Shown here in pieces: positions 14,239 to 44,799 of a stretch of 64,000 nt of DNA (positions within the stretch are counted from its first letter, which is position 1; every line of letters starts with the position of its first letter). Position numbers and translations under genes: made by a program. The notes beneath the pieces are model-generated. The model did not search any database, had not been told where the DNA came from, and saw only the letters and a program-made list of their open reading frames with translations. The DNA is from Centroscyllium fabricii (lineage: Eukaryota): NCBI GenBank assembly GCA_051313645.2, contig JBNRSN020000014.1:152086001-152150000 (forward strand), written 5' to 3'.

Positions 14239-14247
14239 GAGAAATAA

Positions 14248-16411
14248 TTGACTGAGAGAGGATTGAATGAGGGAGAACTGACTGAGGGAGAACTGACTGA
14301 GAGAGGATTGACTGAGGGAGGATTGACTGAGGGAGAACTGACTGAGGGAGAACTGACTGAGACATGTTTGACTGAGAGAGGACTGACTGAGAGAGGACTG
14401 ACTGAGAGATGATTGACTGAGAGAATATTGACTGAGAGAGGATTTACTAGGAGAGAACTGACTGAGAGAGGACTGACTGAGAGAGGATTGACTGAGAGAG
14501 AACTGACTGAGAGAGAACTGACTGAGAGTGGATTGACTGAGGGAGGATTGATTGAGAGAGGATTGACTGAGGGAGGATTGACTGAGAGAGAACTGACTGA
14601 GAGGAGATTGACTGAAGGAGGACTGACTGAGAAGAACTGACTGAGAGAGGACTGACTGAGAGAGGATTGACTGAGGGAGGATTGACTGAGAGTGGATTGA
14701 CTGAGAGAGAACTGATTGAGAGAGGATTGACTGAGGGAGGATTGATTGAGAGAGGATTGACTGAGGGAGGATTGACTGAGAGAGAACTGACTGAGAGAGG
14801 ATTGACTGAGAGAGGATTGACTGAGAGAGGATTGACTGAGGGAGGATTGACTGAGAGTGGATTGACTGAGAGAGAACTGACTGAGAGAGGATTGACTGAG
14901 GGAAGATTGACTGAGTGAGGATTGACTGAGGGAGGATTGACTGAGAGAGGATTGACTGAGAGAGGATTGACTGAGAGAGGATTGACTGAGAGAGAACTGA
15001 CTGAGAGAGTATTGACTGAGAGAGGATTGACTGATAGAGGACTGACTGAGGGAGGACTGAATGAGAGAGGATTGACTGAGAAATTTTTGACTGAGAGAGG
15101 ATTGAATGAGGGAGAACTGACTGAGGGAGAACTGACTGAGAGAGGATTGACTGAGGGAGGATTGACTGAGAGAGGATTGACTGAGAGAGGATTGACTGAG
15201 AGAGAACTGACTGAGAGAGTATTGACTGAGAGAGGATTGACTGATAGAGGACTGACTGAGGGAGGACTGACTGAAAGAGGATTGACTGAGAAATAATTGA
15301 CTGAGAGAGGATTGAATGAGGGAGAACTGACTGAGGGAGAACTGACTGAGGGAGAACTGACTGAGACATGTTTGACTGAGAGAGGACTGACTGAGAGAGG
15401 ACTGACTGAGAGATGATTGACTGAGAGAATATTGACTGAGAGAGGATTTACTAGGAGAGAACTGACTGAGAGAGGACTGACTGAGAGAGGATTGACTGAG
15501 AGAGAACTGACTGAGAGAGAACTGACTGAGAGTGGATTGACTGAGGGAGGATTGATTGAGAGAGGATTGACTGAGGGAGGATTGACTGAGAGAGAACTGA
15601 CTGAGAGGAGATTGACTGAAGGAGGACTGACTGAGAAGAACTGACTGAGAGAGGACTGACTGAGAGAGGATTGACTGAGGGAGGATTGACTGAGAGTGGA
15701 TTGACTGAGAGAGAACTGATTGAGAGAGGATTGACTGAGGGAGGATTGATTGAGAGAGGATTGACTGAGGGAGGATTGACTGAGAGAGAACTGACTGAGA
15801 GAGGATTGACTGAGAGAGGATTGACTGAGAGAGGATTGACTGAGGGAGGATTGACTGAGAGAGGATTGACTGAGAGAGAACTGACTGAGAGAGGATTGAC
15901 TGAGGGAAGATTGACTGAGTGAGGATTGACTGAGGGAGGATTGACTGAGAGAGGATTGACTGAGAGAGGATTGACTGAGAGAGGATTGACTGAGAGAGAA
16001 CTGACTGAGAGAGTATTGACTGAGGGAGGATTGACTGAGAGAGGATTGACTGAGGGAGGATTGAATGAGAGAGGATTGACTGAGGGAGGATTGACTGAGA
16101 GAAGATTGACTGAGAGAGGATTGACTGAGAGAGAACTGACTGAGAGAGGATTGACAGAGGGAGGATTGACTGAGAGAGGATTGACTGAGGGAGGATTGAC
16201 TGAGAGAGGATTGACTGAGAGAGAACTGACTGAGAGAGTATTGACTGAGGGAGGATTGACTGAGAGAGGATTGACTGAGAGAGGATTGACTGAGGGAGGA
16301 TTGAATGAGAGAGGATTGACTGAGGGAGGATTGACTGAGAGAAGATTGACTGAGAGAGGATTGACTGAGAAAGAACTGACTGAGAGAGGATTGACTGAGA
16401 GGATTGACTGA
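14248..16411 (+). repeat. ~1004-bp tandem block duplication in the satellite
   Basis: ORF-track pairs 14413/15417, 14667/15671 and 14922/15926. Shared rare variants GAGACATGTTTG and GGATTTACTAGG. Confidence 0.8.
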
Positions 16412-16654
16412 TAGAGGACTGACTGAGGGAGGATTGACTGAGAGAGAACTGACTGAGAGAGGATTGACTGAGGGAGCATTGACTGAGAGAGGATTGACTG
16501 AGAGTGTCACAGGGTGCCTGTCCCTTTAAAATATCAAAACAGTTTGGTTGTGCTCCACACCTGTTTTGAGAACTGGTTTCCCCTGTTATTCCATTGTCTA
16601 TTCTATTATCGGTGTCAATTGCCTGCGTGTTCCTGTTCTCATTGCCTTCAGCTT

Positions 16655-16726
16655 ATTGGCTAACACCAAATTGTCTGTTTGCCGGTTTTGGTTCATAAGC
16701 TGGAGGTAGTGATGAGAGCAGGGCGG
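16655..16726 (+). promoter_or_regulatory. Candidate U3 promoter motifs in LTR1: inverted CCAAT (ATTGG 16655-16659) and GC box (GGGCGG 16721-16726)
   Basis: Both motifs are conserved with the same spacing in the diverged LTR2 (37792-37796, 37858-37863). Function is inferred only. Confidence 0.4.
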
Positions 16727-16866
16727 GATCATTGAATGAACTGGATTTCTATTACACATTCTACAAGCCACTGGAAGAAGTGGTTACTGCTTCTGTGCTT
16801 CTGGAGAGGCTATGGGTTTGGACTTTCCCTTGCCCGATTGAGGACGGATTCCCTTTGGACCACTCG

Positions 16867-16914
16867 GCTAGAGTGAGACTAGCTGTAGCAGCTAGAGTGA
16901 GACTGGCTGTGGAG
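16867..16914 (+). repeat. 24-bp tandem duplication within LTR1
   Basis: GCTAGAGTGAGACTAGCTGTAGCA followed by GCTAGAGTGAGACTGGCTGTGGAG; not seen in LTR2. Confidence 0.85.
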
Positions 16915-17206
16915 TAGTCTCCTGTGAATTACTATTTGTCATCTGTCGGGACATTGAGTTCAGCCACCGGCAGCACAGGCTGAGTTGCTTAAGAGAGGCA
17001 ATGGGGTGGAGCTCATATCACTCAGCCTTGACATTGCACTCTGCTATCTGGAACTCAGGCATGGACAATTCATATGTTGAGTAAGGGAGTTCCCCTGCTT
17101 GTGGATCTGAATCTACTACTTGGACATTTGTTTCATTTTCATCCGAACCCAGGTTTGGACATTGATGCCTGTTATGCAGAAGCTGTTCCAAAATCCTCTG
17201 ACGAGG

Positions 17207-17302
17207 AGTTGTATTGTGATGTCCTACTCGCAGAGGAAAACTTGTTTTGTTCTCATAAAGCAGTTGTATTGTGATGTCCTGCTTATAGAGGAAGACTTGT
17301 TT
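17207..17302 (+). repeat. 55-bp-period direct repeat within LTR1
   Basis: AGTTGTATTGTGATGTCCT occurs exactly at 17207 and 17262, each followed by ...AGAGGAA.ACTTGTTT. Confidence 0.85.
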
Positions 17303-17485
17303 AAGTTGGACAGTGATACCTGTAATACAGAAGTTTGGACTTGTATTCTTAGGGAAAATGATGCACTTTGCTGCGTAGCATCCCTCCACTCCTTTCTCAC
17401 AACTTTGGGAAGTTCTGTGCCAGACTTTAGCTAAGACTTGTTTAAGATGATTGTTAGATTTATGCTGGTTGTGTGGTATATATTT

Positions 17486-17491
17486 ATTAAA
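17486..17491 (+). terminator. Putative LTR polyadenylation signal ATTAAA
   Basis: About 80 bp from the LTR 3' end with T-rich sequence downstream. The homologous position in LTR2 is AATAAA. Confidence 0.6.
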
Positions 17492-17572
17492 GGAGTTTTT
17501 GCTTTTAAAGGACGTTTCAGTGTCTCTGCATTTGGGCCCCACCCCCATTCCGTTACACCAATTCGGTTTACA

Positions 17573-20500
17573 GAGAGAGAACTGACTGAGAGAGGATTGA
17601 CTGAGAGAGGATTGACTGAGGGAGGATTGACTGAGGGAGGATTGACTGAGGGAGGATTGACTGAGGGAGGATTGACTGAGGGAGGATTGACTGAGGGAGG
17701 ATTGACTGAGGGAGGATTGACTGAGGGAGGATTGACTGAGAGAGGATTGACTGAGAGAGGATTGACTGAGAGAGAACTGACTGAGAGAGGGCTGACTGAG
17801 GGAGGACTGACTGAGAGAGAACTGACTGAGAGAGGATTGACTGAGAGAGGACTGACGGAGAGAGGACTGACTGAGAGAGGACTGACGGAGAGAGGACTGA
17901 CTGAGAGAGGACTGACTGAGAGAGGATTGACTGAGGGAGGATTGACTGAGAGAGGATTGACTGAGGGAGGATTGACTGAGAGAGGATTGACTGAGAGAGA
18001 ACTGACTGTGATGATTGACTGAGGGAGGTTTGACTGAGAGAGGAATGACTGAGAGAGGAATGACTGAGAGAGAACTGACTGAGAGAGAACTGACTGAGAG
18101 AGAACTGACTGAGAGAGGATTGACTGAGGGAGGATTGACTGAGAGGACTGACTGAGAGAGAACTGACTGAGAGAGGATTGACTGAGAGCAGATTGACTGA
18201 GAGAGAACGGACTGAGAGAGGATTGACTGAGGGAGGATTGACTGAGAGGACTGACTGAGAGAGAACTGACTGAGAGAGGATTGACTGAGAGCAGATTGAC
18301 TGAGAGAGAACGGACTGAGAGAGGATTGACTGAGAGGATTGACTGAGAGAGGACTGACTGAGAGAGGATTGACTGAGGGAGGATTGACTGAGGGAGGATT
18401 GACTGAGAGAGGATTGACTGAGGGAGGATTGACTGAGAGAGGATTGACTGAGGTAGGACTGACTGAGAGAGGATTGACTGGGAGAGGATTGACTGGGAGA
18501 GGATTGACTGAGAGAGGATTGACTGAGAGAGGACTGACTGAGAGAGGATTGACTGAGAGAGGATTGACTGAGAGAGGATTGACTGAGAGAGGATTGACTG
18601 AGAGAGGATTGACTGAGAGAGGATTGACTGAGAGAGGATTGACAGAGAGGATTGACTGAGAGAGGATTGACAGAGAGGATTGACAGAGAGGACTGACTGA
18701 GAGAGGATTGAATGAGAAATAACTGACTGAGAGGATTGACTGAAGGAGAACTGACTGAGGGAGAACTGACTGAGAGAGGATTGACTGAGGGAGAACTCAC
18801 TGAGAGAGATCAGACTGAGAGAGAACAGACTGAGAGAGGATTGACTGAGAGAGGATTGACTGAGAGGATTGACTGAGAGAGGATTGACTGAGAGAGGATT
18901 GACTGAGAGAGGATTGACTGAGAGAGGATTGACTGAGAGAGGATTGACTGAGAGAGGATTGACTGAGGGAGGATTGACTGATCGAGGACTGACTGAGAGA
19001 GGACTGACTGAGGGAGGATTGACTGAGAGAACTGACTGAGGGAGGATTGATTGAGAGAGGATTGACTGAGAGAGGACTGACTGAGAGAGGACTGACTGAG
19101 AGAGGATTGACTGAGAGAGGATTGACTGAGAGAGGATTGACTGAGAGAGGATTGACTGAGAGAGGATTGACTGAGAGAGGATTGACTGAGAGAGGATTGA
19201 CTGAGAGAGGATTGACTGATAGAGGACTGAATGAGGGAGGACTGACTGAGGGAGGACTGACTGAGGGAGGACTGACTGAGAGAGGATTGACTGAGAAATA
19301 ACTGACTGAGAGGATTGACTGAGGGAGAACTGACTGAGGGAGAACTGACTGAGGGAGAACTGACAGAGAGAAATCACTGAGAGAACAGACTGAGAGAGAA
19401 CAGACTGAGAGAGAACAGACTGAGAGAGGATTGACTGAGAGGATTGACTGAGAGGATTGACTGAGAGGATTGACTGAGAGGATTGACTGAGAGGATTGAC
19501 TGCGAGAGAATTGACTGAGGGTGGATTGACTGAGGGAGGATTGACTGAGGGAGGATTGACTGAGAGAGGATTGACTGAGAGAGGATTGACTGAGAGAGGA
19601 TTGACTGAGAGAGGATTGACTGAGAGAGGATTGACTGAGAGAGGATTGACTGAGAGAGGATTGACTGAGAGAGGATTGACTGAGAGAGGATTGACTGAGA
19701 GAGGATTGACTGAGAGAGGATTGACTGAGAGAGGATTGACTGAGAGAGGATTGACTGAGAGAGGATTGACTGAGAGAGGATTGACTGAGAGAGGATTGAC
19801 TGAGGGAGGATTGACTGAGAGAGTATTGACTGGGGGAGGATTGACTGAGGGAGGATTGAATGAGAGAGGATTGACTGAGGGAGGATTGACTGAGAGATAA
19901 CTGACTCAGAGAATTGACTGAGGGAGGATTGACTGAGATAGGATTGACTGAGAGAGAACTGACTGAGAGAGGATTGACTGAGGGAGGAATGACTGAGAGA
20001 AGATTGACTGAGAGAGAACTGACTGAGAGGATTTACTGAGGGAGGATTGACTGAGGGAGGATTGACTGGGAGAGGATTGACTGAGGGAGGACTGACTGAG
20101 AGAGGACTGACTGAGAGAGGATTGACTGAGGGAGGATTGACTGAGGGAGGATTGACTGAGAGGATTGACTGAGGGAGGATTGACTGAGGGACGATTGACT
20201 GAGAGATGATTGACTGAGAGAGAACTGACTGAGAGAGGATTGACTGATAGAGGATTGACTGATAGAGGATTGACTGATAGAGGATTGACTGATAGAGGAT
20301 TGACTGATAGAGGATTGACTGATAGAGGACTGACTGAGGGAGGACTGACTGAGAGAGGACTGACTGAGAGAGGACTGACTGAGAGAGGACTGACTGAGAG
20401 AGGACTGACTGAGAGAGGACTGACTGAGAGAGGACTGACTGAGAGAGGACTGACTGAGAGAGGACTGACTGAGAGAGGATTGACTGAGAGAGGATTGACT

Positions 20501-23500
20501 GAGAGAGGATTGACTGAGAGAGGATTGACTGAGAGAGGATTGACTGAGAGAGGATTGACTGAGAGAGGATTGACAGAGAGGATTGACTGAGAGGATTGAC
20601 AGAGAGGATTGACAGAGAGGACTGACTGAGAGAGGATTGAATGAGAAATAACTGACTCAGAGGATTGACTGAAGGAGAACTGACTGAGGGAGAACTGACT
20701 GAGAGAGGATTGACTGAGGGAGAACTCACTGAGAGAGAACAGACTGAGAGAGGATTGACTGAGAGAGGATTGACTGAGAGAATTGACTGAGAGAGGATTG
20801 ACTGAGAGAGGATTGACTGAGAGAGGATTGACTGAGAGAGGATTGACTGAGAGAGGATTGACTGAGAGAGGATTGACTGAGAGAGGATTGAATGAGAGAG
20901 GATTGACTGAGAGAGGATTGACTGCGGGAGGATTGATTGAGGGAGTATTGACTGAGGGAGGATTGACTGAGAGAGGACTGAGAGAGGACTGACTGAGAGA
21001 GGATTGACTGAGGGAGGATTGACTGAGAGAGGATTGACTGAGGGAGGATTGAATGAGAGAGGATTGACTGAGGGAGGATTAACTGAGAGAGAACTGACTC
21101 AGAGAATTGACTGAGGGAGGATTGAAAGAGAGGATTGACTGAGAGAGGATTGACTGAGAGAGAACTGACAGAGAGGATTGACTGAGTGAGGAATGACTGA
21201 GAGGATTGACTGAGAGAGGATTGACTGAGAGAGGATTGACTGAGAGAGGATTGACTGAGAGAGGTTTGACTGAGAGGTTTGACTGAGAGAGGTTTGACTG
21301 AGAGAGGTTTGACTGAGAGAGGATTGACTGAGAGAGGATTGACTGAGGGAGGATTGACTGAGAGAGGATTGACTGAGGGAGGATTGAATGAGAGAGGATT
21401 GACTGAGGGAGGATTGACTGAGGGAGGATTGACTGAGAGAGAACTGACTGAGGGAGGATTGACAGAGAGAGGATTGACTGAGAGAAAACTGACTGAGAGG
21501 ATTGACTGAGTGAGGAATGACTGAGTGAGGATTGACTGAGAGAGAACTGACTGAGAGAGGATTGACTGAGAGAGGATTGACAGAGAGGATTGACTGAGAG
21601 AGGATTGACTGAGAGAGGATTGACAGAGAGGATTGACTGAGAGAGGATTGACTGAGAGAGGTTTGACTGAGAGGTTTGACTGAGAGAGGTTTGACTGAGA
21701 GAAACTGACTGAGGGAGGATTGACAGAGAGAGGATTGACTGAGAGAAAACTGACTGAGAGGATTGACTGAGTGAGGAATGACTGAGTGAGGATTGACTGA
21801 GAGAGAACTGACTGAGAGAGGTTTGACTGAGAGAGGTTTGACTGAGAGAGGATTGACTGATAGAGGATTGACTGAGAGAGAACTGACTGAGGGAGGACTG
21901 ACTGAGTGAGGATTGACTGAGAGAGAACTGACGGAGAGGAGATTGACTGAAGGAGGACTGACTGAGAAGAACTGACTGAGAGAGGACTGACTGAGAGAGG
22001 ACTGACTGAGGGAGGATTGACTGAGGGAGGATTGACTGAGGGAGGATTGACTGAGAGAGAACTGACTGAGAGAGGATTGACTGAGGGAGGATTGATTGAG
22101 AGAGGATTGACTGAGAGAGGATTGACTGAGAGAGGATTGACTGAGAGAGGATTGACTGAGAGAGGATTGACTGAGAGAGGATTGACTGAGAGAGGATTGA
22201 CTGAGGGAGGATTGACTGAGGGAGGATTGACTGAGAGAAGAGTGACTGAGAGAGAACTGACTGACAGAGGATTGACTGAGGGAAGATTGACTGAGAGAGG
22301 ATTGACTGAGAGAAGATTGACTGAGAGAGAACTGACTGACAGAAGATTGACTGAGTGAGGATTGACTGAGGGAGGATTGACTGAGGGAGAACTGACTGAG
22401 GGAGAACTGACTGAGAGAGGACTGACTGAGAGAGGATTGACTGAGAGAGGATTGACTGAGAGAGAACTGACTGAGGGAGGACTGACTGAGAGGATTGACT
22501 GAGAGAGAACTGACTGAGAGAGTATTGACTGAGAGAACTGACTGAGAGAGGATTGATTGAGGGAGGATTGACTGAGAGACGATTGACTGAGGGAGGATTG
22601 ACTGAGAGAGGATTGACTGAGAGAGAACTGACTGAGAGAGGACTGACTGAGAGAGAACTGACTGAGAGAGGATTGACTGAGAGAGGATTGACTGAGGGAG
22701 GAATGACTGAGAGAGGATTGACAGAGAGAACTGACTGAGAGAGGATTGACAGAGAGGATTGACTGAGGGTGGATTGACTGAGAGAGGATTGACTGAGAGA
22801 GGATTGACTGAGGGAGGATTGACTGAGGGAGGATTGACTGAGAGAGAACTGACTGAGGGAGGATTGACTGAGGGAGGATTGACTGAGAGAGGATTGACTG
22901 AGGGAGGATTGACTGAGAGAGAACGGACTGAGAGAGGACTGACTGAGAGAGGACTGACTGAGAGAGGACTGACTGAGAGAGGACTGACTGAGAGAGGATT
23001 GACTGAGTGAGGAATGACTGAGAGGATTGACTGAGAGAGGATTGACTGAGAGAGGATTGACTGAGAGAGGATTGACTGAGAGAGGTTTGACTGAGAGGTT
23101 TGACTGAGAGAGGTTTGACTGAGAGAGGTTTGACTGAGAGAGGATTGACTGAGAGAGGATTGACTGAGGGAGGATTGACTGAGAGAGGATTGACTGAGGG
23201 AGGATTGAATGAGAGAGGATTGACTGAGGGAGGATTGACTGAGGGAGGATTGACTGAGAGAGAACTGACTGAGGGAGGATTGACAGAGAGAGGATTGACT
23301 GAGAGAAAACTGACTGAGAGGATTGACTGAGTGAGGAATGACTGAGTGAGGATTGACTGAGAGAGAACTGACTGAGAGAGGATTGACTGAGAGAGGATTG
23401 ACAGAGAGGATTGACTGAGAGAGGATTGACTGAGAGAGGATTGACAGAGAGGATTGACTGAGAGAGGATTGACTGAGAGAGGTTTGACTGAGAGGTTTGA

Positions 23501-26500
23501 CTGAGAGAGGTTTGACTGAGAGAAACTGACTGAGGGAGGATTGACAGAGAGAGGATTGACTGAGAGAAAACTGACTGAGAGGATTGACTGAGTGAGGAAT
23601 GACTGAGTGAGGATTGACTGAGAGAGAACTGACTGAGAGAGGTTTGACTGAGAGAGGTTTGACTGAGAGAGGATTGACTGATAGAGGATTGACTGAGAGA
23701 GAACTGACTGAGGGAGGACTGACTGAGTGAGGATTGACTGAGAGAGAACTGACGGAGAGGAGATTGACTGAAGGAGGACTGACTGAGAAGAACTGACTGA
23801 GAGAGGACTGACTGAGAGAGGACTGACTGAGGGAGGATTGACTGAGGGAGGATTGACTGAGGGAGGATTGACTGAGAGAGAACTGACTGAGAGAGGATTG
23901 ACTGAGGGAGGATTGATTGAGAGAGGATTGACTGAGAGAGGATTGACTGAGAGAGGATTGACTGAGAGAGGATTGACTGAGAGAGGATTGACTGAGAGAG
24001 GATTGACTGAGAGAGGATTGACTGAGGGAGGATTGACTGAGGGAGGATTGACTGAGAGAAGAGTGACTGAGAGAGAACTGACTGACAGAGGATTGACTGA
24101 GGGAAGATTGACTGAGAGAGGATTGACTGAGAGAAGATTGACTGAGAGAGAACTGACTGACAGAAGATTGACTGAGTGAGGATTGACTGAGGGAGGATTG
24201 ACTGAGGGAGAACTGACTGAGGGAGAACTGACTGAGAGAGGACTGACTGAGAGAGGATTGACTGAGAGAGGATTGACTGAGAGAGAACTGACTGAGGGAG
24301 GACTGACTGAGAGGATTGACTGAGAGAGAACTGACTGAGAGAGTATTGACTGAGAGAACTGACTGAGAGAGGATTGATTGAGGGAGGATTGACTGAGAGA
24401 CGATTGACTGAGGGAGGATTGACTGAGAGAGGATTGACTGAGAGAGAACTGACTGAGAGAGGACTGACTGAGAGAGAACTGACTGAGAGAGGATTGACTG
24501 AGAGAGGATTGACTGAGGGAGGAATGACTGAGAGAGGATTGACAGAGAGAACTGACTGAGAGAGGATTGACAGAGAGGATTGACTGAGGGTGGATTGACT
24601 GAGAGAGGATTGACTGAGAGAGGATTGACTGAGGGAGGATTGACTGAGGGAGGATTGACTGAGAGAACTGACTGACAGAGTATTTACTGAGGGAGGATTG
24701 ACTGAGAGAAGATTGACTGAGAGATGATTGACTGAGGGAGGGTTGACTGAGAGAGGATTGACTGAGAGAGAACTGACTGAGAGAGGATTGACTGAGGGAG
24801 AACTGACTGAGAGAACTCACTGAGAGAGGATTGACTGAGAGAGGATTGACTGAGGGAGGTTTGACTGAGAGAGGTTTGACTGAGAGGTTTGACTGAGAGA
24901 GGTTTGACTGAGAGAGGATTGACTGAGAGAGGATTGACTGAGAGAGGATTGACTGAGGGAGGATTGACTGAGAGAGGATTGACTGAGGGAGGATTGAATG
25001 AGAGAGGATTGACTGAGGGAGGATTGACTGAGGGAGGATTGACTGCGAGAGAACTGACTGAGGGAGGATTGACAGAGAGAGGATTGACTGAGAGAAAACT
25101 GACTGAGAGGATTGACTGAGTGAGGAATGACTGAGCGAGAATTGACTGAGAGAGAACTGACTGAGAGAGGTTTGACTGAGAGAGGTTTGACTGAGAGAGG
25201 ATTGACTGATAGAGGATTGACTGAGAGAGAACTGACTGAGGGAGGACTGACTGAGAGAGGATTGACTGAGAGAGAACTGACGGAGAGGAGATTGACTGAA
25301 GGAGGACTGACTGAGAAGAACTGACTGAGAGAGGACTGACTGAGAGAGGACTGACTGAGGGAGGATTGACTGAGGGAGGATTGACTGAGGGAGGATTGAC
25401 TGAGAGAGAACTGACTGAGAGAGGATTGACTGAGGGAGGATTGATTGAGAGAGGATTGACTGAGAGAGGATTGACTGAGAGAGGATTGACTGAGAGACGA
25501 TTGACTGAGAGAGGATTGACTGAGAGAGTATTGACTGAGAGAGGATTGACTGAGGGAGGATTGACTGAGGGAGGATTGACTGAGAGAAGATTGACTGAGA
25601 GAGAACTGACTGACAGAGGATTGACTGAGGGAAGATTGACTGAGAGAGGATTGACTGAGAGAAGATTGACTGAGAGAGAACTGGCTGACAGAGGATTGAC
25701 TGAGTGAGGATTGACTGAGGGAGGATTGACTGAGGGAGAACTGACTGAGGGAGAACTGACTGAGAGAGGACTGACTGAGAGAGGATTGACTGAGAGAGGA
25801 TTGACTGAGAGAGAACTGACTGAGGGAGGACTGACTGAGAGGATTGACTGAGAGAGAACTGACTGAGAGAGTATTGACTGAGAGAACTGACTGAGAGAGG
25901 ATTGATTGAGGGAGGATTGACTGAGAGACGATTGACTGAGGGAGGATTGACTGAGAGAGGATTGACTGAGAGAGAACTGACTGAGAGAGGACTGACTGTG
26001 AGAGAACTGACTGAGAGAGGATTGACTGAGAGAGGATTGACTGAGGGAGGAATGACTGAGAGAGGATTGACAGAGAGAACTGACTGAGAGAGGATTGACA
26101 GAGAGGATTGACTGAGAGAGGATTGACTGAGAGAGGATTGACTGAGAGAGGATTGACTGAGGGAGGATTGACTGAGAGAGGATTGACTGAGAGATGATTG
26201 ACTGAGGGAGGGTTGACTGAGAGAGGATTGACTGAGAGAGAACTGACTGAGAGAGGATTGACTGAGGGAGAACTGACTGAGAGAACTCACTGAGAGAGGA
26301 TTGACTGAGAGGATTGACTGAGGGAGGATTGACTGAGAGAACCGACTGAGAGAGGATTGACTGAGAGAGGATTGACTGAGGGAGGATTGAATGAGAGAGA
26401 ACTGACTGAGAGGATTGACTGAGTGAGGATTGACTGAGAGGATTGACTGAGAGAGAACTGACTGAGAGAGAACTGACTGAGAGAGGATTGACTGAGGGAG

Positions 26501-29500
26501 GATTGACTGAGAGAGAACGGACTGAGAGAGGATTGACTGAGAGAGGATTGACTGAGAGAGGATTGACTGAGGGAGGATTGACTGAGGGAGGATTGACTGA
26601 GAGAGAACTGACTGAGGGAGGATTGACTGAGGGAGGATTGACTGAGAGAGGATTGACTGAGGGAGGATTGACTGAGAGAGAACGGACTGAGAGAGGACTG
26701 ACTGAGAGAGGACTGACTGAGAGAGGACTGACTGAGAGAGGACTGACTGAGAGAGGATTGACTGAGAGAGGATTGACTGAGAGAGGATTGACTGAGAGAG
26801 GATTGACTGAGAGAGGATTGACTGAGAGAGGATTGACTGAGAGAGGATTGACAGAGAGGATTGACTGAGAGAGGATTGACAGAGAGGATTGACAGAGAGG
26901 ACTGACTGAGAGAGGATTGAATGAGAAATAACTGACTGAGAGGATTGACAGAAGGAGAACTGACTGAGGGAGAACTGACTGAGAGAGGATTGACTGAGGG
27001 AGAACTCACTGAGAGAGAACAGACTGAGAGAGAACAGACTGAGAGAGGATTGACTGAGAGAGGATTGACTTAGAGAATTGACTGAGAGAGGATTGACTGA
27101 GAGAGGATTGACTGAGAGAGGATTGACTGAGAGAGGATTGACTGAGAGAGGATTGACTGAGAGAGGATTGACTGAGAGAGGATTGACTGAGAGAGGATTG
27201 ACTGAGAGAGGATTGACTGCGGGAGGATTGATTGAGGGAGTATTGACAGAGAGAGGATTGACTGAGAGAGAACTGACTGAGAGAGGATTGACTGAGAGAG
27301 AACTGACTGAGAGAGGATTGACTGAGGGAGGATTGACTGAGGGAGGATTGACTGAGGGAGGATTGACTGAGGGAGGATTGACTGAGGGAGGATTGACTGA
27401 GGGAGGATTGACTGAGGGAGGATTGACTGAGGGAGGATTGACTGAGAGAGGATTGACTGAGAGAGAACTGACTGAGAGAGGATTGACTGAGAGAGAACTG
27501 ACTGAGAGAGGATTGACTGAGGGAGGATTGACTGAGGGAGGATTGACTGAGGGAGGACTGACTGAGGGAGGATTGACTGAGGGAGGATTGACTGAGAGAG
27601 GATTGACTGAGAGAGAACTGACTGAGAGAGGATTGACTGAGAGAGAACTGACTGAGAGAGGATTGACTGAGGGAGGATTGACTGAGGGAGGATTGACTGA
27701 GGGAGGACTGACTGAGGGAGGATTGACTGAGAGAGGATTGACTGAGAGAGAACTGACTTAGAGAGGATTGACTGAGAGAGGACTGACTGAGGGAGGATTG
27801 ACTGAGGGAGGATTGACTGAGGGAGGATTGACTGAGGGAGGATTGACTGAGGGAGGATTGACTGAGGGAGGATTGACTGAGGGAGGATTGACTGAGGGAG
27901 GATTGACTGAGGGAGGATTGACTGAGAGAGGATTGACTGAGAGAGAACTGACTGAGAGAGGATTGACTGAGAGAGAACTGACTGAGAGAGGATTGACTGA
28001 GGGAGGATTGACTGAGGGAGGATTGACTGAGGGAGGACTGACTGAGGGAGGATTGACTGAGAGAGGATTGACTGAGAGAGAACTGACTTAGAGAGGATTG
28101 ACTGAGAGAGGACTGACTGAGGGAGGACTGACTGAGAGAGAACTGACTGAGAGAGGATTGACTGAGAGAGGATTGACTGAGAGAGAACTGACTGAGAGAG
28201 GATTGACTGAGGGAGGATTGACTGAGGGAGGATTGACTGAGGGAGGACTGACTGAGGGAGGATTGACTGAGAGAGGATTGACTGAGAGAGAACTGACTTA
28301 GAGAGGATTGACTGAGAGAGGACTGACTGAGGGAGGACTGACTGAGAGAGAACTGACTGAGAGAGGATTGACTGAGAGAGGACTGACTGAGGGAGGACTG
28401 ACTGAGGGAGGACTGACTGAGAGAGAACTGACTGAGAGAGGATTGACTGAGGGAGAACTGACAGAGAGAACTGACTGAGAGAGAACTGACTGAGAGAGAA
28501 CTGACTGAGAGAGGATTGACTGAGGGAGGATTGAATGAGAGAGGATTGACTGAGGGAGGATTGACTTAGAGAAGATTGACTGAGAGTGAACTGACTGAGA
28601 GAGTACTGACTGAGAGAGGATTGACTGAGGGAGGATTGAATGAGAGAGGATTGACTGAGGGAGGATTGACTTAGAGAAGATTGACTGAGAGTGAACTGAC
28701 TGAGGGAGGATTGACTGAGGGAGGATTGACTGAGGGAGGATTGACTGAGGGAGGATTGACTGAGGGAGGATTGACTGAGGGAGGATTGAATGAGAGAGGA
28801 TTGAATGAGGGAGGATTGACTGAGGGAGGATTGACTGAGGGAGAACTGACTGAGAGAGGATTGACTGAGAGAGGATTGAATGAGAGAGGATTGACTGAGT
28901 GAGGATTGACTGAGGGAGGATTGACTGAGGGAGGATTGACTGAGAGAGAATTGACTGAGGGAGGATTGACTGAGGGAGGATTGACTGAGAGAGAATTGAC
29001 TGAGAGAGAACTGACGGAGAGAGGATTGACTGAGGGAGGATTGACTGAGGGAGGATTGACTGAGGGAGGATTGACTCAGAGAGGATTGACTGAGGGGATT
29101 GACTGAGGGAGGATTGACTGAGGGAGAACTGACTGAGGGAGAACTGACAGAGAGGATTGACTGAGAGAGGACTGACTGAGAGAGGACTGACTGAGAGAGG
29201 ACTGACTGAGAGAGGACTGACTGAGAGAGGACTGACTGAGGGAGGATTGACTGAGAGAGGATTGACTGAGAGAGGATTGACTGAGACAGAACTGACTGTG
29301 ATGATTGACTGAGTGAGGTTTGACTGAGAGAGGAATGACTGAGAGAGGAATGACTGAGAGAGAACTGACTGAGAGAGAACTGACTGAGAGAGAACTGACT
29401 GAGAGAGGATTGACAGAGAGGATTGACTGAGGGAGGATTGAATGAGAGAGAACTGACTGAGAGAGGATTGACTGAGGGAGGATTGACTGAGAGGACTGAC

Positions 29501-32500
29501 TGAGAGAGAACTGACTGAGAGAGGATTGACTGAGAGCAGATTGACTGAGAGAGAACGGACTGAGAGAGGATTGACTGAGAGGATTGACTGAGAGAGGATT
29601 GACTGAGAGAGGACTGACTGAGGGAGGATTCACTGAGGGAGGATTGACTGAGAGAGGATTGACTGAGGGAGGATTGACTGAGAGAGGATTGACTGAGAGA
29701 GGACTGACTGAGAGAGGATTGTCTGGGAGAGGATTGACTAGGAGAGGATTGACTGAGAGAGGATTGACTGAGAGAGGATTGACTCAGAGAGGACTGACTG
29801 AGAGAGGACTGACTGAGAGAGGACTGACTGAGGGAGGACTGACTGAGGGAGGATTGACTGAGGGAGGATTGATTGAGAGAGGATTGATTGAGAGAGGATT
29901 GACTGAGAGAGGATTGACTGAGAGGATTCACTGAGAGAGGATTGACTGAGAGAGGATTGACTGAGAGAGGATTGACTGAGAGAGCATTGACTGAGAGAGG
30001 ATTGACTGAGAGAGGATTGACTGAGAGAGGATTGACTGAGAGAGGATTGACTGAGAGAGGATTGACTGAGAGAGGATTGACTGAGAGAGGATTGACTGAG
30101 AGAGGATTGACTGAGAGAGGATTGACTGAGAGAGGATTGACTGAGGGAGGATTGACTGAGGGAGGACTGACTGAGAGAGGACTGACTGAGGGAGGATTGA
30201 CTGAGAGAACTGACTGAGAGAGACTTGACTGAGGGAGGATTGATTGAGAGAGGATTGACTGAGAGAGGATTGACTGAGAGAGGACTGACTGAGAGAGAAC
30301 TGACTGAGAGAGGATTGACTGAGAGAGGATTGACTGAGAGAGGATTGACTGAGAGAGGATTGACTGAGAGAGGATTGACTGAGAGAGGATTGACTGAGAG
30401 AGGATTGACTGAGAGAGGATTGACTGATAGAGGACTGACTGAGGGAGGACTGACTGAGGGAGGACTGACTGAGCGAGGACTGACTGAGGGAGGACTGACT
30501 GAGAGGGGATTGACTGAGAAATAACTGACTGAGAGGTTTGACTGAAGGAGAACTGACTGAGGGAGAACTGACAGAGAGAAATCACTGAGAGAACAGACTG
30601 AGAGAGAACAGACTGAGAGAGAACAGACTGAGAGAGGATTGACTGAGAGGATTGACTGAGAGGATTGACTGAGAGGATTGACTGAGAGGATTGACTGCGA
30701 GAGAACTGACTGAGGGAGGATTGACTGAGGGAGGATTGACTGAGGGAGGATTGACTGAGGGAGGATTGACTGAGAGAGGATTGACTGAGAGAGGATTGAC
30801 TGAGAGAGGATTGACTGAGAGAGGATTGACTGAGAGAGGATTGACTGAGAGAGGATTGACTGAGAGAGAATTGACTGAGAGAGGATTGACTGAGAGTGGA
30901 TTGACTGAGAGAGGATTGACTGAGAGAGGATTGACTGAGAGAGGATTGACTGAGAGAGGATTGACTGAGGGAGGATTGACTGTGAGAGGATTGACTGAGG
31001 GAGGATTGAATGAGAGAGGATTGACTGAGAGATAACTGACTCAGAGAATTGACTGAGGGAAGATTGACTGAGATAGGATTGACTGAGAGAGAACTGACTG
31101 AGAGAGGATTTACTGAGGGAGGAATGACTGAGAGAGGATTGACTGAGAGAGGATTGACTGAGAGAGAACTGACTGAGAGGATTTACTGAGGGAGGATTGA
31201 CTGAGGGAGGATAGACTGGGAGAGAATTGACTGAGGGAGGACTGACTGAGAGAGGACTGACTGAGAGAGGATTGACTGAGGGAGGATTGACTGAGAGAGA
31301 ACTGACTGAGAGGGTTGACTGAGGGAGGATTGACTGAGGGACGATTGACTGAGAGAGGATTGACAGAGAGAACTGACTGAGAGAGGATTGACTGATAGAG
31401 GATTGACTGATAGAGGATTGACTGATAGAGGATTGACTGATAGAGGATTGACTGATAGAGGATTGACTGATAGAGGATTGACTGATAGAGGACTGACTGA
31501 GGGAGGACTGGCTGAGGGAGGACTGACTGAGAGAGGATTGACTAAGAGAGAACTGACGGAGAGAGGACTGACAGAGAGGACTGACTGAGAGAGGACTGAC
31601 TGAGAGAGGACTGACTGAGAGAGGACTGACTGAGAGGATTGACTGAGAGAGGATTGACTGAGTGAGGATTGACTGAGAGAGGATTGACTGAGAGAGGATT
31701 GACTGAGAGAGGATTGACTGAGAGAGGATTGACTGAGAGAGGATTGACAGAGAGGATTGACTGAGAGAGGATTGACTGAGAGGATTGACAGAGAGGATTG
31801 ACTGAGAGAGGATTGAATGAGAAATAACTGACTGAGAGGATTGACTGAAGGAGAACTGACTGAGGGAGAACTGACTGAGAGAGGATTGACTGAGGGAGAA
31901 CTCACTGAGAGAGAACAGACTGAGAGAGAACAGACTGAGAGAGGATTGACTGAGAGAGGATTGACTGAGAGAGGATTGACCTAGAGGATTGACTGAGAGG
32001 ATTGACTGAGAGAGGATTGACTGAGAGGATTGACTGAGAGAGGATTGACTGAGAGAGGATTGACTGAGAGGATTGACAGAGAGGATTGACTGAGAGAGGA
32101 TTGACTGAGAGAGGATTGACTGAGAGAGGATTGACTGCGGGAGGATTGATTGAGGGAGTATTGACTGAGGGAGGATTGACTGAGAGAGGACTGAGAGAGG
32201 ACTGACTGAGAGAGGATTGACTGAGGTTGGATTGACTGAGAGAGGATTGACTGAGGGAGGATTGAATGAGAGAGGATTGACTGAGGGAGGATTGACTGAG
32301 AGAGAACTGACTCAGAGAATTGACTGAGGGAGGATTGACAGAGAGGATTGACTGAGAGAGGATTGACTGAGAGAGGATTGACTGAGAGAGAACTGACAGA
32401 GATGATTGACTGAGTGAGGAATGACTGAGAGGATTGACTGAGAGAGGATTGACTGAGAGAGGATTTACTGAGAGAGGATTGACTGAGAGAGGTTTGACTG

Positions 32501-35500
32501 AGAGGTTTGACTGAGAGGTTTGACTGAGAGAGGTTTGACTGAGAGAGGATTGACTGAGAGAGGATTGACTGAGAGAGGATTGACTGAGGGAGGATTGACT
32601 GAGAGAGGATTGACTGAGGGAGGATTGAATGAGTGAGGATTGACTGAGGGAGGATTGACTGAGGGAGGATTGACTGAGAGAGAACTGACTGAGGGAGGAT
32701 TGACAGAGAGAGGATTGACTGAGAGAGAACTGACTGAGAGGATTGACTGAGTGAGGAATGACTGAGTGAGGATTGACTGAGAGAGAACTGACTGAGAGAG
32801 GATTGACTGAGAGAGGTTTGACTGAGAGAGGTTTGACTGAGAGAGGTTTGACTGAGAGAGGTTTGACTGAGAGAGGATTGACTGAGAGAGGATTGACTGA
32901 GAGAGAACTGACTGTGATGATTGACTGAGGGAGGTTTGACTGAGAGAGGAATGACTGAGAGAGGAATGACTGAGAGAGAACTGACTGAGAGAGAACTGAC
33001 TGAGAGAGAACTGACTGAGAGAGGATTGACAGAGAGGATTGACTGAGGGAGGATTGAATGAGAGAGAACTGACTGAGAGAGGATTGACTGAGAGCAGATT
33101 GACTGAGAGAGAACGGACTGAGAGAGGATTGACTAAGAGGATTGACTGAGAGAGGATTGACTGAGAGAGGACTGACTGAGGGAGGATTGACTGAGGGAGG
33201 ATTGACTGAGAGAGGATTGACTGAGGGAGGATTGACTGAGAGAGGATTGACTGAGAGAGGACTGACTGAGAGAGGATTGACTGGGAGAGGATTGACTGGG
33301 AGAGGATTGACTGAGAGAGGACTGACAGAGAGGACTGACTGAGAGAGGACTGACTGAGAGAGGACTGACTGAGAGAGGACTGACTGAGGGAGGACTGACT
33401 GAGGGAGGATTGACTGAGGGAGGACTGACTGAGAGAGGACTGACTGAGAGAGGACTGACTGAGAGGATTGACTGAGAGAGAATTGACTGAGTGAGGATTG
33501 ACTGAGAGAGGATTGACTGAGAGAGGATTGACTGAGAGAGGATTGACTGAGAGAGGATTGACTGAGAGAGGATTGACAGAGAGGATTGACTGAGAGAGGA
33601 TTGACAGAGAGGATTGACTGAGAGAGGATTGAATGAGAAATAACTGACTGAGAGGATTGACTGAAGGAGAACTGACTGAGGGAGAACTGACTGAGAGAGG
33701 ATTGGCTGAGGGAGAACTCACTGAGAGAGAACAGACTGAGAGAGAACAGACTGAGAGAGGATTGACTGAGAGAGGATTGACTGAGAGAGGATTGACTGAG
33801 AGGATTGACTGAGAGAGGATTGACTGAGAGAGGATTGACTGAGAGAGGATTGACTGAGAGAGGATTGACTGAGAGGATTGACAGAGAGGATTGACTGAGA
33901 GATGATTGACTGAGAGAGGATTGACTGAGAGAGGATTGACTGCGGGAGGATTGATTGAGGGAGTATTGACTGAGGGAGGATTGACTGAGAGAGGACTGAG
34001 AGAGGACTGACTGAGGGATGATTTACTGAGGGGCGATTGACTGAGAGAAGATTGACTGAGGGAGGATTAAATGGGAGAGGATTGACTGAGGGAGGATTGA
34101 CTGAGAGAGAACTGACTCAGAGAATTGACTGAGGGAGGATTGACAGAGAGGATTGACTGAGAGAGGATTGACTGAGAGAGAACTGACAGAGAGGATTGAC
34201 TGAGTGAGGAATGACTGAGAGGATTGACTGAGAGAGGATTGACTGAGAGAGGATTTACTGAGAGAGGATTGACTGAGAGAGGGTTGACTGAGAGGTTTGA
34301 CTGAGAGAGGTTTGACTGAGAGAGGATTGACTGAGAGAGGATTGACTGAGAGAGGATTGACTGAGAGAGGATTGACTGAGAGAGGATTGACTGAGAGAGG
34401 ATTGACTGAGAGAGGATTGACTGAGAGAGGATTGACTGAGAGAGGATTGACTGAGAGAGGATTGACTGAGAGAGGATTGACTGAGAGAGGATTGACTGAG
34501 AGAGGATTGACTGAGGGAGGATTGACTGAGGGAGGACTGACTGAGAGAGGACTGACTGAGGGAGGATTGACTGAGAGAACTGACTGAGAGAGACTTGACT
34601 GAGAGAGGATTGATTGAGAGAGGATTGACTGAGAGAGAACTGACTGAGAGAGGATTGACTGAGAGCAGATTGACTGAGAGAGAACGGACTGAGAGAGGAT
34701 TGACTAAGAGGATTGACTGAGAGAGGATTGACTGAGAGAGGACTGACTGAGGGAGGATTGACTGAGGGAGGATTGACTGAGAGAGGATTGACTGAGGGAG
34801 GATTGACTGAGAGAGGATTGACTGAGAGAGGACTGACTGAGAGAGGATTGACTGGGAGAGGATTGACTGGGAGAGGATTGACTGAGAGAGGACTGACAGA
34901 GAGGACTGACTGAGAGAGGACTGACTGAGAGAGGACTGACTGAGAGAGGACTGACTGAGAGAGGACTGACTGAGAGGATTAACTGAGAGAGAATTGACTG
35001 AGTGAGGATTGACTGAGAGAGGATTGACTGAGAGAGGATTGACTGAGAGAGGATTGACTGAGAGAGGATTGACTGAGAGAGGATTGACAGAGAGGATTGA
35101 CTGAGACAGGATTGACAGAGAGGATTGACTGAGAGAGGATTGAATGAGAAATAACTGACTGAGAGGATTGACTGAAGGAGAACTGACTGAGGGAGAACTG
35201 ACTGAGAGGGGATTGACTGAGGGAGAACTCACTGAGAGAGAACAGACTGAGAGAGAACAGACTGAGAGAGGATTGACTGAGAGAAGATTGACTGAGAGAG
35301 GATTGACTGAGAGGATTGACTGAGAGAGGATTGACTGAGAGAGGATTGACTGAGAGAGGATTGACTGAGAGAGGATTGACTGAGAGGATTGACAGAGAGG
35401 ATTGACTGAGAGATGATTGACTGAGAGAGGATTGACTGAGAGAGGATTGACTGCGGGAGGATTGATTGAGGGAGTATTGACTGAGGGAGAATTGACTGAG

Positions 35501-37642
35501 AGAGGACTGAGAGAGGACTGACTGAGGGATGATTTACTGAGGGACGATTGACTGAGAGAAGATTGACTGAGGGAGGATTAAATGAGAGAGGATTGACTGA
35601 GGGAGGATTGACTGAGAGAGAACTGACTCAGAGAATTGACTGAGGGAGGATTGACTGAGAGGATTGACTGAGAGAGGATTGACTGAGAGAGAACTGACAG
35701 AGAGGATTGACTGAGTGAGGAATGACTGAGAGGATTGTCTGAGAGAGGATTGACAGAGAGATGATTTACTGAGAGAGGATTGACTGAGAGAGGTTTGACT
35801 GAGAGGTTTGACTGAGAGCGGTTTGACTGAGAGAGGATTGACTGAGAGAGGATTGACTGAGAGAGGATTGACTGAGGGAGGATTGACTGAGAGAGGATTG
35901 ACTGAGGGAGGATTGAATGAGAGAGGATTGACTGAGGGAGGATTGACTGAGGGAGGATTGACTGAGAGAGAACTGACTGAGGGAGGATTGACAGAGAGAG
36001 GATTGACTGAGAGAGAACTGACTGAGAGGATTGACTGAGTGAGGAATGACTGAGTGAGGATTGACTGAGAGAGAACTGACTGAGAGAGGATTGACTGAGA
36101 GAGGTTTGACTGAGAGAGGTTTGACTGAGAGAGGTTTGACTGAGAGAGGTTTGACTGAGAGAGGATTGACTGATAGAGGATTGACTGAGAGAGAACTGAC
36201 TGAGGGAGGACTGACTGAGAGAGGATTGACTGAGAGAGAACTGACGGAGAGGAGATTGACTGAAGGAGGACTGACTGAGAAGAACTGACTGAGAGAGGAC
36301 TGACTGAGAGAGGACTGACTGAGGGAGGATTGACTGAGGGAGGATTGACTGAGAGAGAACTGACTGAGAGAGGATTGACTGAGGGAGGATTGATTGAGAG
36401 AGGATTGACTGAGAGAGGATTGACTGAGAGAGGATTGACTGAGAGAGGATTGACTGAGAGAGGATTGACTGAGAGAGGATTGACTGAGGGAGGATTGACT
36501 GAGGGAGGATTGACTGAGGGAGGATTGACTGAGGGAGGATTGACTGAGAGAAGATTGACTGAGAGAGGATTGACTGAGGGAGGATTGACTGAGAGAGAAC
36601 TGACTGACAGAGGATTGACTGAGAGAGGATTGACTGAGGGAGGATTGACTGAGAGAGGATTGACTGAGGGAGGATTGACTGAGAGAGAACTGACTGACAG
36701 AGTATTGACTGAGAGAACTGACTGAGAGAGGATTGATTGAGGGAGGATTGACTGAGGGAGAACTGACTGAGGGAGAACTGACTGAGGGAGAACTGACTGA
36801 GAGAGGACTGACTGAGAGAGGATTGACTGAGAGAAGATTGACTGAGAGAGAACTGACTGAGGGAGGACTGACTGAGAGAGGATTGACTGAGAGAGAACTG
36901 ACTGAGAGAGTATTGACTGAGAGAACTGACTGAGAGAGGATTGATTGAGGGAGGATTGACTGAGAGACGATTGACTGAGGGAGGATTGACTGAGAGAGGA
37001 TTGACTGAGAGAGAACTGACTGAGAGAGGACTGACTGAGAGAGAACTGACTGAGAGAGGATTGACTGAGAGAGGATTGACTGAGGGAGGAATGACTGAGA
37101 GAGGATTGACAGAGTGAACTGACTGAGAGAGGATTGACAGAGAGGATTGACAGAGAGGATTGACAGAGAGGATTGACTGAGAGAGGATTGACTGAGAGAG
37201 GATTGACTGAGAGAGGATTGACTGAGAGAGGATTGACTGAGGGAGGATTGACTGAGGGAGGATTGACTGAGAGAACTGACTGACAGAGTATTTACTGATG
37301 GAGGATTGACTGAGAGAGGATTGACTGAGAGAGGATTGACTGAGGGAGGGTTGACTGAGAGAGGATTGACTGAGAGAGAACTGACTGAGAGAGGATTGAC
37401 TGAGGGAGAACTGACTGAGAGAACTCACTGAGACAGGATTGACTGAGAGAGGATTGACTGAGGGAGGTTTGACTGAGAGAGAACTGACTGAGGGAGGATT
37501 GACTGAGGGAGGATTGACTGAGAGAGGATTGACTGAGAGAGGACTGACTGAGAGAGGACTGACTGAGAGAGGACTGACTGAGAGAGGACTGACTGAGAGA
37601 GGACTGACTGAGAGAGGATTGACTGAGAGAGGATTGACTGAG
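17573..37642 (+). repeat. 15-bp satellite array, domain B (rich in 13-bp deletion monomers)
   Basis: Same consensus. Marker GAGAAATAACTGACT at 18714, 19293, 20643, 26923, 30516, 31819, 33635 and 35146. Frequent GAACAGACT, GGTTTGACT and GAGTGAGGAATG variants. Confidence 0.98.
21190..24660 (+). repeat. 1821-bp tandem block duplication, with a third degenerate copy to ~26100
   Basis: ORF-track pairs 21279/23100, 22017/23838 and 22553/24374 have identical translations. Related segments at 24889, 25366 and 25902. Confidence 0.88.
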
Positions 37643-37867
37643 TGTCACAGGGGGCCTGTTCCTTTAAGAATGAAGAACAGTTTTTGCTGTGCTTCACAGC
37701 TGTTTTGAGGACTGGGTTTCCTTGTTATGTCATTAATTATTCTATTATCTGTCTATTGCTAGTTGTGTCCTGCTCTCATTGCCTCCAAGTTATTGGCTAT
37801 CACCAAAGGGTTTGCTTGCTGGTTTTAGTTCTTAAACTGGAGGTAGGCTTGAGAGCAGGGCGGGATC

Positions 37868-37902
37868 ATTGTATTGTATTGTATTGCATTGTATTGTAAT
37901 GT
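37868..37902 (+). repeat. (ATTGT)~7 microsatellite inside LTR2
   Basis: ATTGT ATTGT ATTGT ATTGC ATTGT ATTGT AATGT. LTR1 has only ATTGAATG at the homologous site. Confidence 0.9.
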
Positions 37903-38271
37903 GTTACTGAACTGGACTTCTACCACACATTCTTCAGGCCACTGGACGAAGTGGTTACTGCTGCTGAGCTGAGTGGCCGTCAGAGGCAAGGAGGTTTGGA
38001 GATCGACTGACTCAGCCTTTACTTTGCACTCTGCTATTTCAGGTGCTCAGGCTGAGTTGCCCGACAGGGGCATTGGGGTGGAACTCATATCACTCTGCCT
38101 TGACAGTGCGCCCTGCTATCGGGAACCCAGCAATGGACAACTCATATGTGGAGTAAGGGCGTTCCCCTGCTTGTGGATCTGAATCCACTACTTGGACATT
38201 CGTTTCTTCATCCGAATCCAGGTTTGGACATTTGATACCTGTATGCAGAAGCTGTTCCCAAATCCTCTACG

Positions 38272-38371
38272 AAGTATTTGGATTGTGATGTCCTACTCGC
38301 AGAGGAGGACTTGTTCGTTTCTCTTTAAGTATTTGGATTGGGATGTCCTGCTTCTAGAGGAGAGCTCGTTT
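38272..38371 (+). repeat. 55-bp-period direct repeat within LTR2
   Basis: AAGTATTTGGATTG(T/G)GATGTCCT at 38272 and 38327. Confidence 0.85.
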
Positions 38372-38543
38372 AAGTTGGACAGTTATGCCTGGACTTGTGT
38401 TCCTCGGGAGAATGACGCGCTTGGTTGCGTGGCACCCCTCTATCCATTACTCACTATTTTGGGAAGCTTGTGCCAGTCTTTAGATAAGACTTGTGTTTCA
38501 ATATGTTTCTTATATATTTGTATGCTATTTTATGGGGTTGTGT

Positions 38544-38549
38544 AATAAA
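38544..38549 (+). terminator. Putative LTR polyadenylation signal AATAAA
   Basis: Canonical hexamer 78 bp upstream of the LTR 3' end; position conserved with LTR1. Confidence 0.65.
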
Positions 38550-38627
38550 GGAGTTTAGTCATATTAGACGTTTCAGTGTATCTGCATTTGGGCCCCGCCC
38601 TCATTCCATTTACACCTACCCGTTACA

Positions 38628-44206: not shown

Positions 44207-44207
44207 G

Positions 44208-44699
44208 TACAGGGCACTGGTGAGACCACACCTCGAGTACTGTGTGCAGTTTTGGTCGCCTCATCTGAGGAAGGATGTTCTTGCCATGGAAGGAGTGCAG
44301 CGGCGATTCACCAGGCTGATACCAGGAATGGCAGGAATGACCTATGAGGAGAGACTATGTAGTTTGGGGATGTACACACTGGAGTTTAGAAGATTGAGAG
44401 GGGATCTCATAGAAACATATAAAATTCTGACAGGCCTGGACAGACTAGATGCAGAAGGAATGTTTCCGATGGCAGAAGAGTACAGAACTAGGGGACACAG
44501 TTTAAGGATAAGGGCTAAACCATTTAGGACAGAGATGAGGAGGAATTTCTTCACCCAGAGAGTGGTGAACCTGTGGAACTCACTGCCACAGAGGGCAGTG
44601 GACGCCAGCTCATTAAATATATTTAAGAGGGAATTAGATATATTTCTGCAGGCAAAAGGGGTTAAAGGTTACGGAGAGAAGGCAGGGACGGGATACTGA
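44208..44699 (+). pseudogene. CR1 ORF2 (endonuclease-reverse transcriptase) C-terminal remnant, 163 uninterrupted codons, no RT catalytic core
   Basis: Open frame from TAC at 44208 to TGA ending at 44699 (ORF track 44220..44699). The 5' end is fused directly to satellite. Confidence 0.9.
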
Positions 44700-44732
44700 A
44701 CGGAAGGATCAGCCATGATCTCATTGAATGGC

Positions 44733-44771
44733 GGAGCAGGCTCGAAGGGCCGAATGGCCTACTCCTGCTCC
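44733..44771 (+). other. CR1 3' UTR stem-loop (putative RT recognition structure)
   Basis: GGAGCAGG (44733-44740) pairs with CCTGCTCC (44764-44771), enclosing an inner GGCC-GAAT-GGCC hairpin. Confidence 0.75.
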
Positions 44772-44775
44772 TATC

Positions 44776-44799
44776 ATCTATGTATCTATGTATCTATGT
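44776..44799 (+). repeat. CR1 3'-terminal octamer tail (ATCTATGT)3
   Basis: Three exact 8-mers immediately before the satellite resumes. 8-bp terminal repeats are typical of CR1 elements. Confidence 0.9.

Follow-up and report, generated by a model that had tools for sequence, protein, structure and literature searches.

The question raised by this locus is whether a satellite array can draw in a particular family of long terminal repeat (LTR) retrotransposons. The window (the whole stretch analysed, 64,000 nucleotides of contig JBNRSN020000014.1, positions 152,086,001 to 152,150,000) consists mostly of a 15-bp GA-rich satellite, and two solo LTRs of one family, LTR1 and LTR2, lie within it. 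An earlier note on this DNA took the pair as a sign of integration preference for the satellite or its chromatin. LTR1 and LTR2 are two independent integrase-type insertions and represent two subfamilies of one LTR family. With a probability of about 0.55, these separate insertions belong to a Sushi-like Gypsy family that is likely abundant throughout the genome, does not target this satellite and has no more than a modest tendency to gather in satellite arrays.

LTR1 (16505..17572, + strand) is 1068 bp long and runs from TGTCACAG to GGTTTACA, and LTR2 (37643..38627, + strand) is 985 bp long and runs from TGTCACAG to CGTTACA, the orientation in each case being that suggested by the polyadenylation (poly(A)) signal. 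The two elements share their opening bases and a closing TTACA, and both have TG..CA ends with short imperfect inverted termini. LTR1 is flanked by the 5-bp target-site duplication (TSD) GAGAG (16500..16504 and 17573..17577, + strand), and LTR2 by CTGAG (37638..37642 and 38628..38632, + strand). When duplication lengths of 0 to 10 were tried, 5 was the only one that matched on both sides and restored the 15-bp spacing of the array, and this was so for both elements. At a blunt break in the array, a 5-bp match arises by chance at 8 of 60,589 positions, and random pairing of left and right sides gives one in 4.4% of cases. The TG..CA ends, the separate perfect TSDs and the return of monomer phase on excision, all described earlier, are thus confirmed with exact coordinates. 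A TSD of 5 bp is typical of chromoviruses.

The likely poly(A) signal of LTR1 is ATTAAA (17486..17491, + strand), 81 bases from the 3' end, and that of LTR2 is AATAAA (38544..38549, + strand), 78 bases from the 3' end. In both elements the signal is followed by a GT-rich U5, and both carry the U5 motif TGCATTTGGG (17527..17536 in LTR1, + strand). The 3' half of both LTRs has an imperfect tandem duplication of ~45 bases (window 17213-17305, recognised by eye), a typical U3 enhancer-like repeat. As to coding capacity, the one frame searched gave no protein relative, and the three frames compared with Pfam gave no match above the cut-off. The only Pfam row, Sec1 with an E value of 0.073, is under the cut-off, and a coding function of the LTR was rejected. 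An Rfam search of the window matched no family.

LTR1 and LTR2 are 81.6%, 83.1% and 83.1% identical in three alignable blocks (293, 444 and 59 columns), and 41% and 50% identical in two poorly aligned parts. The middle of the pair does not align: a block of LTR1 (16800..16972, + strand) is missing from LTR2, which has at this place a diverged second copy (37982..38052, + strand) of the next unit, which is found at 16994-17060 in LTR1. This second copy is 77% identical to the next unit over 71 bp. The unalignable middle reported before is therefore real and has its explanation in differing blocks. The LTR1 block occurs at family-level depth in all four public sequencing runs that were aligned (see below), which makes it a feature of the subfamily rather than an insertion private to this copy, and the start of the second copy in LTR2 coincides with a loose end of four contigs in run X5, which makes it a subfamily trait as well. 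LTR2 also contains an (ATTGT)7 expansion (37868..37902, + strand) that is not in LTR1.

The 1.5-kb flanks of the two LTRs have no rare 24-mers in common on either side. Since the LTRs are also only ~82% alike in the alignable blocks, they are independent insertions of two subfamilies. A single old insertion that was duplicated within the array, and then changed by divergence or by conversion from another subfamily, would fit the same orientation and nearly the same phase of the pair, and the array does copy inserts, as seen for a pair of 326-bp pieces (see below). The TSDs differ, however, the flanks share no rare words, the divergence is ~18%, and the diagnostic blocks of both subfamilies occur in public runs. 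Such an origin is extremely improbable, and on the evidence of the flanks local duplication was rejected, in agreement with the earlier note, which had preferred different subfamilies. The differences between LTR1 and LTR2 have no transition bias: 105 are transitions and 116 transversions, and the best block has 38 and 37. Simple decay would not usually leave such a pattern.

The class of the family was compared by the att motifs in Table 3 of PMC3601003. The 5' att motif of Sushi and V-clade chromoviruses, TGTYANR, fits both LTRs, and the 3' Sushi motif, CNTNACA, fits LTR2. The 5' motifs of Gamma-type endogenous retroviruses (ERVs), Mag C and CsRN1 each fit neither LTR. Sushi LTRs are described in PMC3601003 as having a near-terminal poly(A) signal and a T-rich U3, the T-richness being found also in rGmr1, and the U3 of both LTRs in the window is T-rich (39-40% T in the first 200 bases). 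The pattern GCNNNTGGR follows the poly(A) signal in 6 of 8 fish and 0 of 2 fungal Sushi LTR ends (10 of the 24 training-set 3' ends, scored by eye and with no rGmr1, BEL or ERV control). Zebrafish Gypsy107_DR, a member of the Sushi training set of PMC3601003, has the identical TGCATTTGGG after its poly(A) signal. To judge from its LTRs, which work like those of the Sushi/V-clade, the family is likely a Sushi-like (vertebrate chromovirus) Gypsy and a putative member of that clade.

Some of these features also suit other classes, and the LTRs could be those of a Gmr1-type Gypsy, a class III (spuma-like) ERV or a BEL element, which would have no chromodomain and would be a passive resident of a tolerant region. 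The 5' rGmr1 motif TGTNANR fits both LTRs (by reading), and the 3' rGmr1 motif CGTNACA fits LTR2 only. The lengths fall within the range of the rGmr1 LTRs listed in PMC3601003 (294-1160 bp), which argues mildly for rGmr1, and the class III motifs (TGT/ACA) fit trivially. The U5 motif and the near-terminal poly(A) signal, on the other hand, match fish Sushi LTRs, the motif having been scored without rGmr1, BEL and ERV sets, and BEL has been reported as absent in the elephant shark. A class outside the chromoviruses is improbable on balance.

Nine public runs from three studies contain parts of LTR1, and these are probably from other, related species. The best share of sampled LTR1 words in any of the nine is 0.52 (~2% distance), and none of them contains an exact LTR1 copy. 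The contigs of four of the nine runs were aligned on LTR1 and 30 flanking bases, divided into 30 bins. The numbers of aligned contigs were 1549, 2050, 1002 and 514 in these four runs (from the three studies), and all 30 bins were covered. Likeness of the contigs to LTR1 ranges from >99% to <90%, and the word depth of single contigs reaches 1453. The alignment of two long contigs, from two studies, begins exactly at 16505, which supports the 5' boundary of LTR1. Of the 40 difference rows listed, 24 are ones where LTR2 has the alternative letter of the runs (3 of these 24 being in the unalignable part), and three words found only in LTR2 are present among the loose ends of run contigs, so that both subfamilies exist outside the window. 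At 10 of the same 40 rows, LTR1 is unlike at least 90% of the family depth in all four runs. LTR1 lies ~1-2% from the sampled family sequence, through age or species difference, and by this comparison is probably not a fresh copy.

No loose end falls at either terminus of LTR1 among the 24 of 312 loose ends listed for the four runs. Family members with flanks were also sought by exact motif in metagenome contigs, viral contigs and prokaryote genomes, and none of these yielded a locus. Two viral contigs that match the gapped U5 pattern have no LTR similarity past the motif (best E value 0.32) and were rejected as chance.

The copy number of the family was estimated from contig depth, which is itself no copy number. 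Single-copy word depths were set near 6 and 10, from contig saturation between two runs, and a two- to fourfold overcount from contig overlap was assumed. The median internal bin gives a rough copy number of 3,400-7,100, and per-position figures are ~300-7,000, with the best conserved bins ~3 times as deep as the median bin. The bin with the U5 stretch (17501-17538) has 7-9 times the depth of the median internal bin, which would put the motif on roughly 25,000-64,000 copies. Because of this excess depth, a broader set of LTR families probably has the U5 motif in common, and the figures suggest tens of thousands of related LTRs. The earlier note had held that abundant copies spread without enrichment would speak against a preference, and the first half of this is what the runs contain, the family being multicopy in all four.

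Whether two copies in 64 kb are an excess depends on this copy number, and was judged by a rough Poisson expectation, suggestive at most, for evenly spread copies in an assumed genome of 3-5 Gb and a single 64-kb window. With 30,000 copies, the probability of at least two in the window is 0.06-0.14, and with 5,000-10,000 copies, 150-900 windows per genome would hold two copies by chance. The window is chosen in hindsight, and sister families could equally have given a two-copy pattern. Across 325 genomes, transposons make up 7% of chordate satellite arrays on average, and over all taxa no class is more enriched in such arrays than LTR elements, with copies in arrays younger and more intact than those outside (10.64898/2026.09.17.752431; the words 'shark' and 'Chondrichth' do not occur in its main text). 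The interruptions in the window, at 5.2%, compare with this chordate mean of 7%. They form five non-satellite islands, namely the two LTR-like elements, one end of a CR1-type long interspersed nuclear element (LINE) and two identical 326-bp pieces. Young, intact and often nested copies, the hallmark of centrophilic elements, are not what this 64-kb window contains, since both LTRs are solo and LTR1 is ~1-2% from the family as sampled in runs that may be from other species.

Several points weigh against a merely modest gathering of a Sushi-like family. With 5,000 copies, 0.06-0.11 are expected per 64 kb and the probability of at least two is 0.002-0.005, and with 10,000 copies this probability is still only 0.008-0.02. 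At 5,000 copies the point enrichment is 19-31 fold, with a lower 95% bound of 2-4 fold. CR1 makes up 21.8% of the whale shark genome (PMC8455134) and ~0.9% of the window, which suggests that this commonest of elements is purged from the array or stays out of it, yet two copies of this family are there. As to class, the 3' end of LTR1 is one base off the Sushi motif, both LTRs exceed in length every one of the 24 LTRs in the Sushi training set (137-898 bp in PMC3601003) yet are within the rGmr1 range, and the class call is read from the two LTRs. The reading is also weakened in that the copy number comes from contig depth in runs that are probably of other species. The part of the earlier proposal that stands is two independent, integrase-type insertions of different subfamilies of one LTR family in a likely cartilaginous fish, and two copies in 64 kb exceed an even spread of 5,000-10,000 copies. 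The phase bias discussed below and any link to centromeres find no support.

The excess leaves some room for a more direct mechanism. The integrase may be tethered by a group I chromodomain that binds histone H3 di- or trimethylated at lysine 9 (H3K9me2/3), or by a C-terminal tail that seeks CENP-A, so that satellite or centromeric heterochromatin would hold copies at a density 10 or more times higher. Such a family would be for vertebrates what MAGGY, CRM or Tal1 are elsewhere. Two of the four independent insertions in the window come from a family of a few thousand copies (P 0.002-0.02 under even spread), the LTR features point to chromoviruses, and vertebrate chromoviruses have group I chromodomains, the group to which that of MAGGY, which binds H3K9me2/3, also belongs (PMC3350952). 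Since the two subfamilies are ~18% apart, such a bias would have persisted. The case is however one of n=2, chosen in hindsight in one window, and sister families, to which the 7-9 times deeper U5 bin points, could mimic it. The 64 kb contain no intact or nested copy. Notothenioid Gypsy families that group with sushi-ichi and Amn-ni, which are the mapped teleost Sushi-like families, are scattered in fluorescence in situ hybridization (FISH), with no clear accumulation (PMC5941688). In sharks, small chromosomes have a higher content of simple tandem repeats (10.1101/2022.10.17.512540). Strong tethering to chromatin is a tentative reading, possible but less likely than not. The fuller version, in which a chondrichthyan chromovirus family has a chromodomain that steers integration into GA-rich satellite heterochromatin with at least 10-fold enrichment, kept across subfamilies 18% apart, is unlikely.

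The TSDs CTGAG and GAGAG overlap within the monomer, and the orientation of the LTRs is identical, as was stated before. Such overlap, with target phases 2 of 15 bases apart, could come from fixed-phase insertion guided by an integrase or host factor that recognises CTGAGAG in the monomer. Fish non-LTR elements are known to target microsatellites (Kibi on TC, Koshi on TTC; PMC3812793). The chance of this agreement in phase and orientation is however about 1/6, and the cuts themselves fall in different phases, so that the target-phase and orientation bias claimed earlier amounts to no more than chance and the phase match was rejected as evidence for targeting. The satellite flank to the right of the LTR reaches only 3.5-9.6% of the depth of the last LTR bin in all four runs, a figure that includes pure-satellite contigs, as flank depth does not separate these from junction contigs. 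The ratio is a weak bound because the last LTR bin is common to sister families. No satellite-junction indel occurs among the 12 of 39 indel rows listed. Recognition of the monomer sequence is accordingly given very little credence.

A modest gathering of an abundant Sushi-like family would proceed as follows. The array was cut at two sites with a 5-bp stagger, as the TSDs and the restored phase show, presumably by an integrase. The interior of each full-length copy would then have been lost through LTR-LTR recombination, an established route to solo LTRs. The array turns over by duplications of 1-6 kb, and old insertions are likely purged in the process, so that the remaining ones would reflect recently active families. 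Any excess over even spread likely arises from a soft bias to gene-free silent chromatin and from tolerance there, and not from recognition of the monomer. If the family is Sushi-like, a chromodomain would supply the soft chromatin bias.

The array itself extends over the whole window (1..64000, + strand) with ~4290 copies of the 15-bp GA-rich monomer at 84% matches, and contains near-identical internal duplications at offsets of 1-6 kb. The GC skew of this purine-rich satellite is ~0.63, an extreme strand asymmetry. Recent duplications within the array have offsets of 1.0-5.9 kb and are most frequent past 48 kb. Public runs X1, X6 and X8 contain variants related to the satellite. No mention of its monomer words was found in the literature searched.

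The third independent insertion is the end of a 5'-truncated CR1-type LINE (44207..44799, + strand), which consists of the tail of an open reading frame followed by a (ATCTATGT)n tail. Its final 163 codons are still open, and it is without a clean TSD. The top protein match is 88% identical, the best named match is Chiloscyllium punctatum at 74%, and birds and turtles are at 46-55%. This suits a cartilaginous fish as the likely host, although several unnamed matches have scores equal to or above that of Chiloscyllium.

The fourth independent insertion is an unclassified 326-bp piece that resembles the 3' end of a non-LTR element (49029..49354, + strand). A second, identical copy (54892..55217, + strand) owes its presence to a 5863-bp duplication within the array, and all 249 of 249 rare 24-mers in the right flank are common to both copies. 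The pair is hence a single insertion copied with the array, and the independent insertions number four, the count given in the earlier note. The insert has a short open frame, then AATAAA, then TTTGAA-type repeats, and an apparent target duplication of 9 bp. Its 46-aa frame gave only atlas matches at 0.80 and a sub-threshold Pfam row, and is uninformative. The insert is presumably similar to fish non-LTR elements sited in GA/TC repeats, and may perhaps be a better candidate for sequence targeting in the 15-bp array.

If the two LTRs are ordinary residents, they add a Sushi-like LTR family of the shark lineage and two dated markers in a fast-turning satellite. If targeting were true, the family would be a mechanism-ready example, at the family level, of chromatin-targeted LTR integration in a vertebrate, and would bear on the question whether vertebrate chromoviruses use their chromodomain to guide integration into heterochromatin, in the way that MAGGY does in a fungus. 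LTR invasion of satellites is already documented across eukaryotes, including chordates (10.64898/2026.09.17.752431). The literature searched, which does not reach most subscription journals, Dfam or Repbase, gave no account of an LTR family that targets satellites in cartilaginous fishes.

Among known systems, the Sushi/Amn (V-clade) chromoviral Ty3/Gypsy LTRs of fish are alike in the 5' motif TGTYANR (2 of 2), the 3' motif CNTNACA (1 of 2), the near-terminal poly(A) signal, the T-rich U3 and a motif of the TGCATTTGGG type. They differ in length (985-1068 bp here against 137-898 bp), and the present family is known from LTRs alone, in a host that is likely a cartilaginous fish. The rGmr1-type Gypsy elements of fish share TGTNANR (2 of 2), CGTNACA (1 of 2), the T-rich U3 and the length range; they are defined by the order of integrase before reverse transcriptase and by lack of a chromodomain, whereas the comparison here is one of LTRs. 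The notothenioid Gypsy families of PMC5941688 are also from fish and likely of the same clade, and are scattered on chromosome arms, whereas DIRS1 in the same study formed centromeric hot spots. For plant CRM, ATHILA and Tal1 and fungal MAGGY, tropism rests on genome-wide enrichment, young intact copies or targeting assays, as against two solo LTRs in one window here. What the two LTRs have in common with these elements is integrase-type insertion in a satellite array, and the chromodomain of MAGGY belongs to the same group as those of vertebrate chromoviruses.

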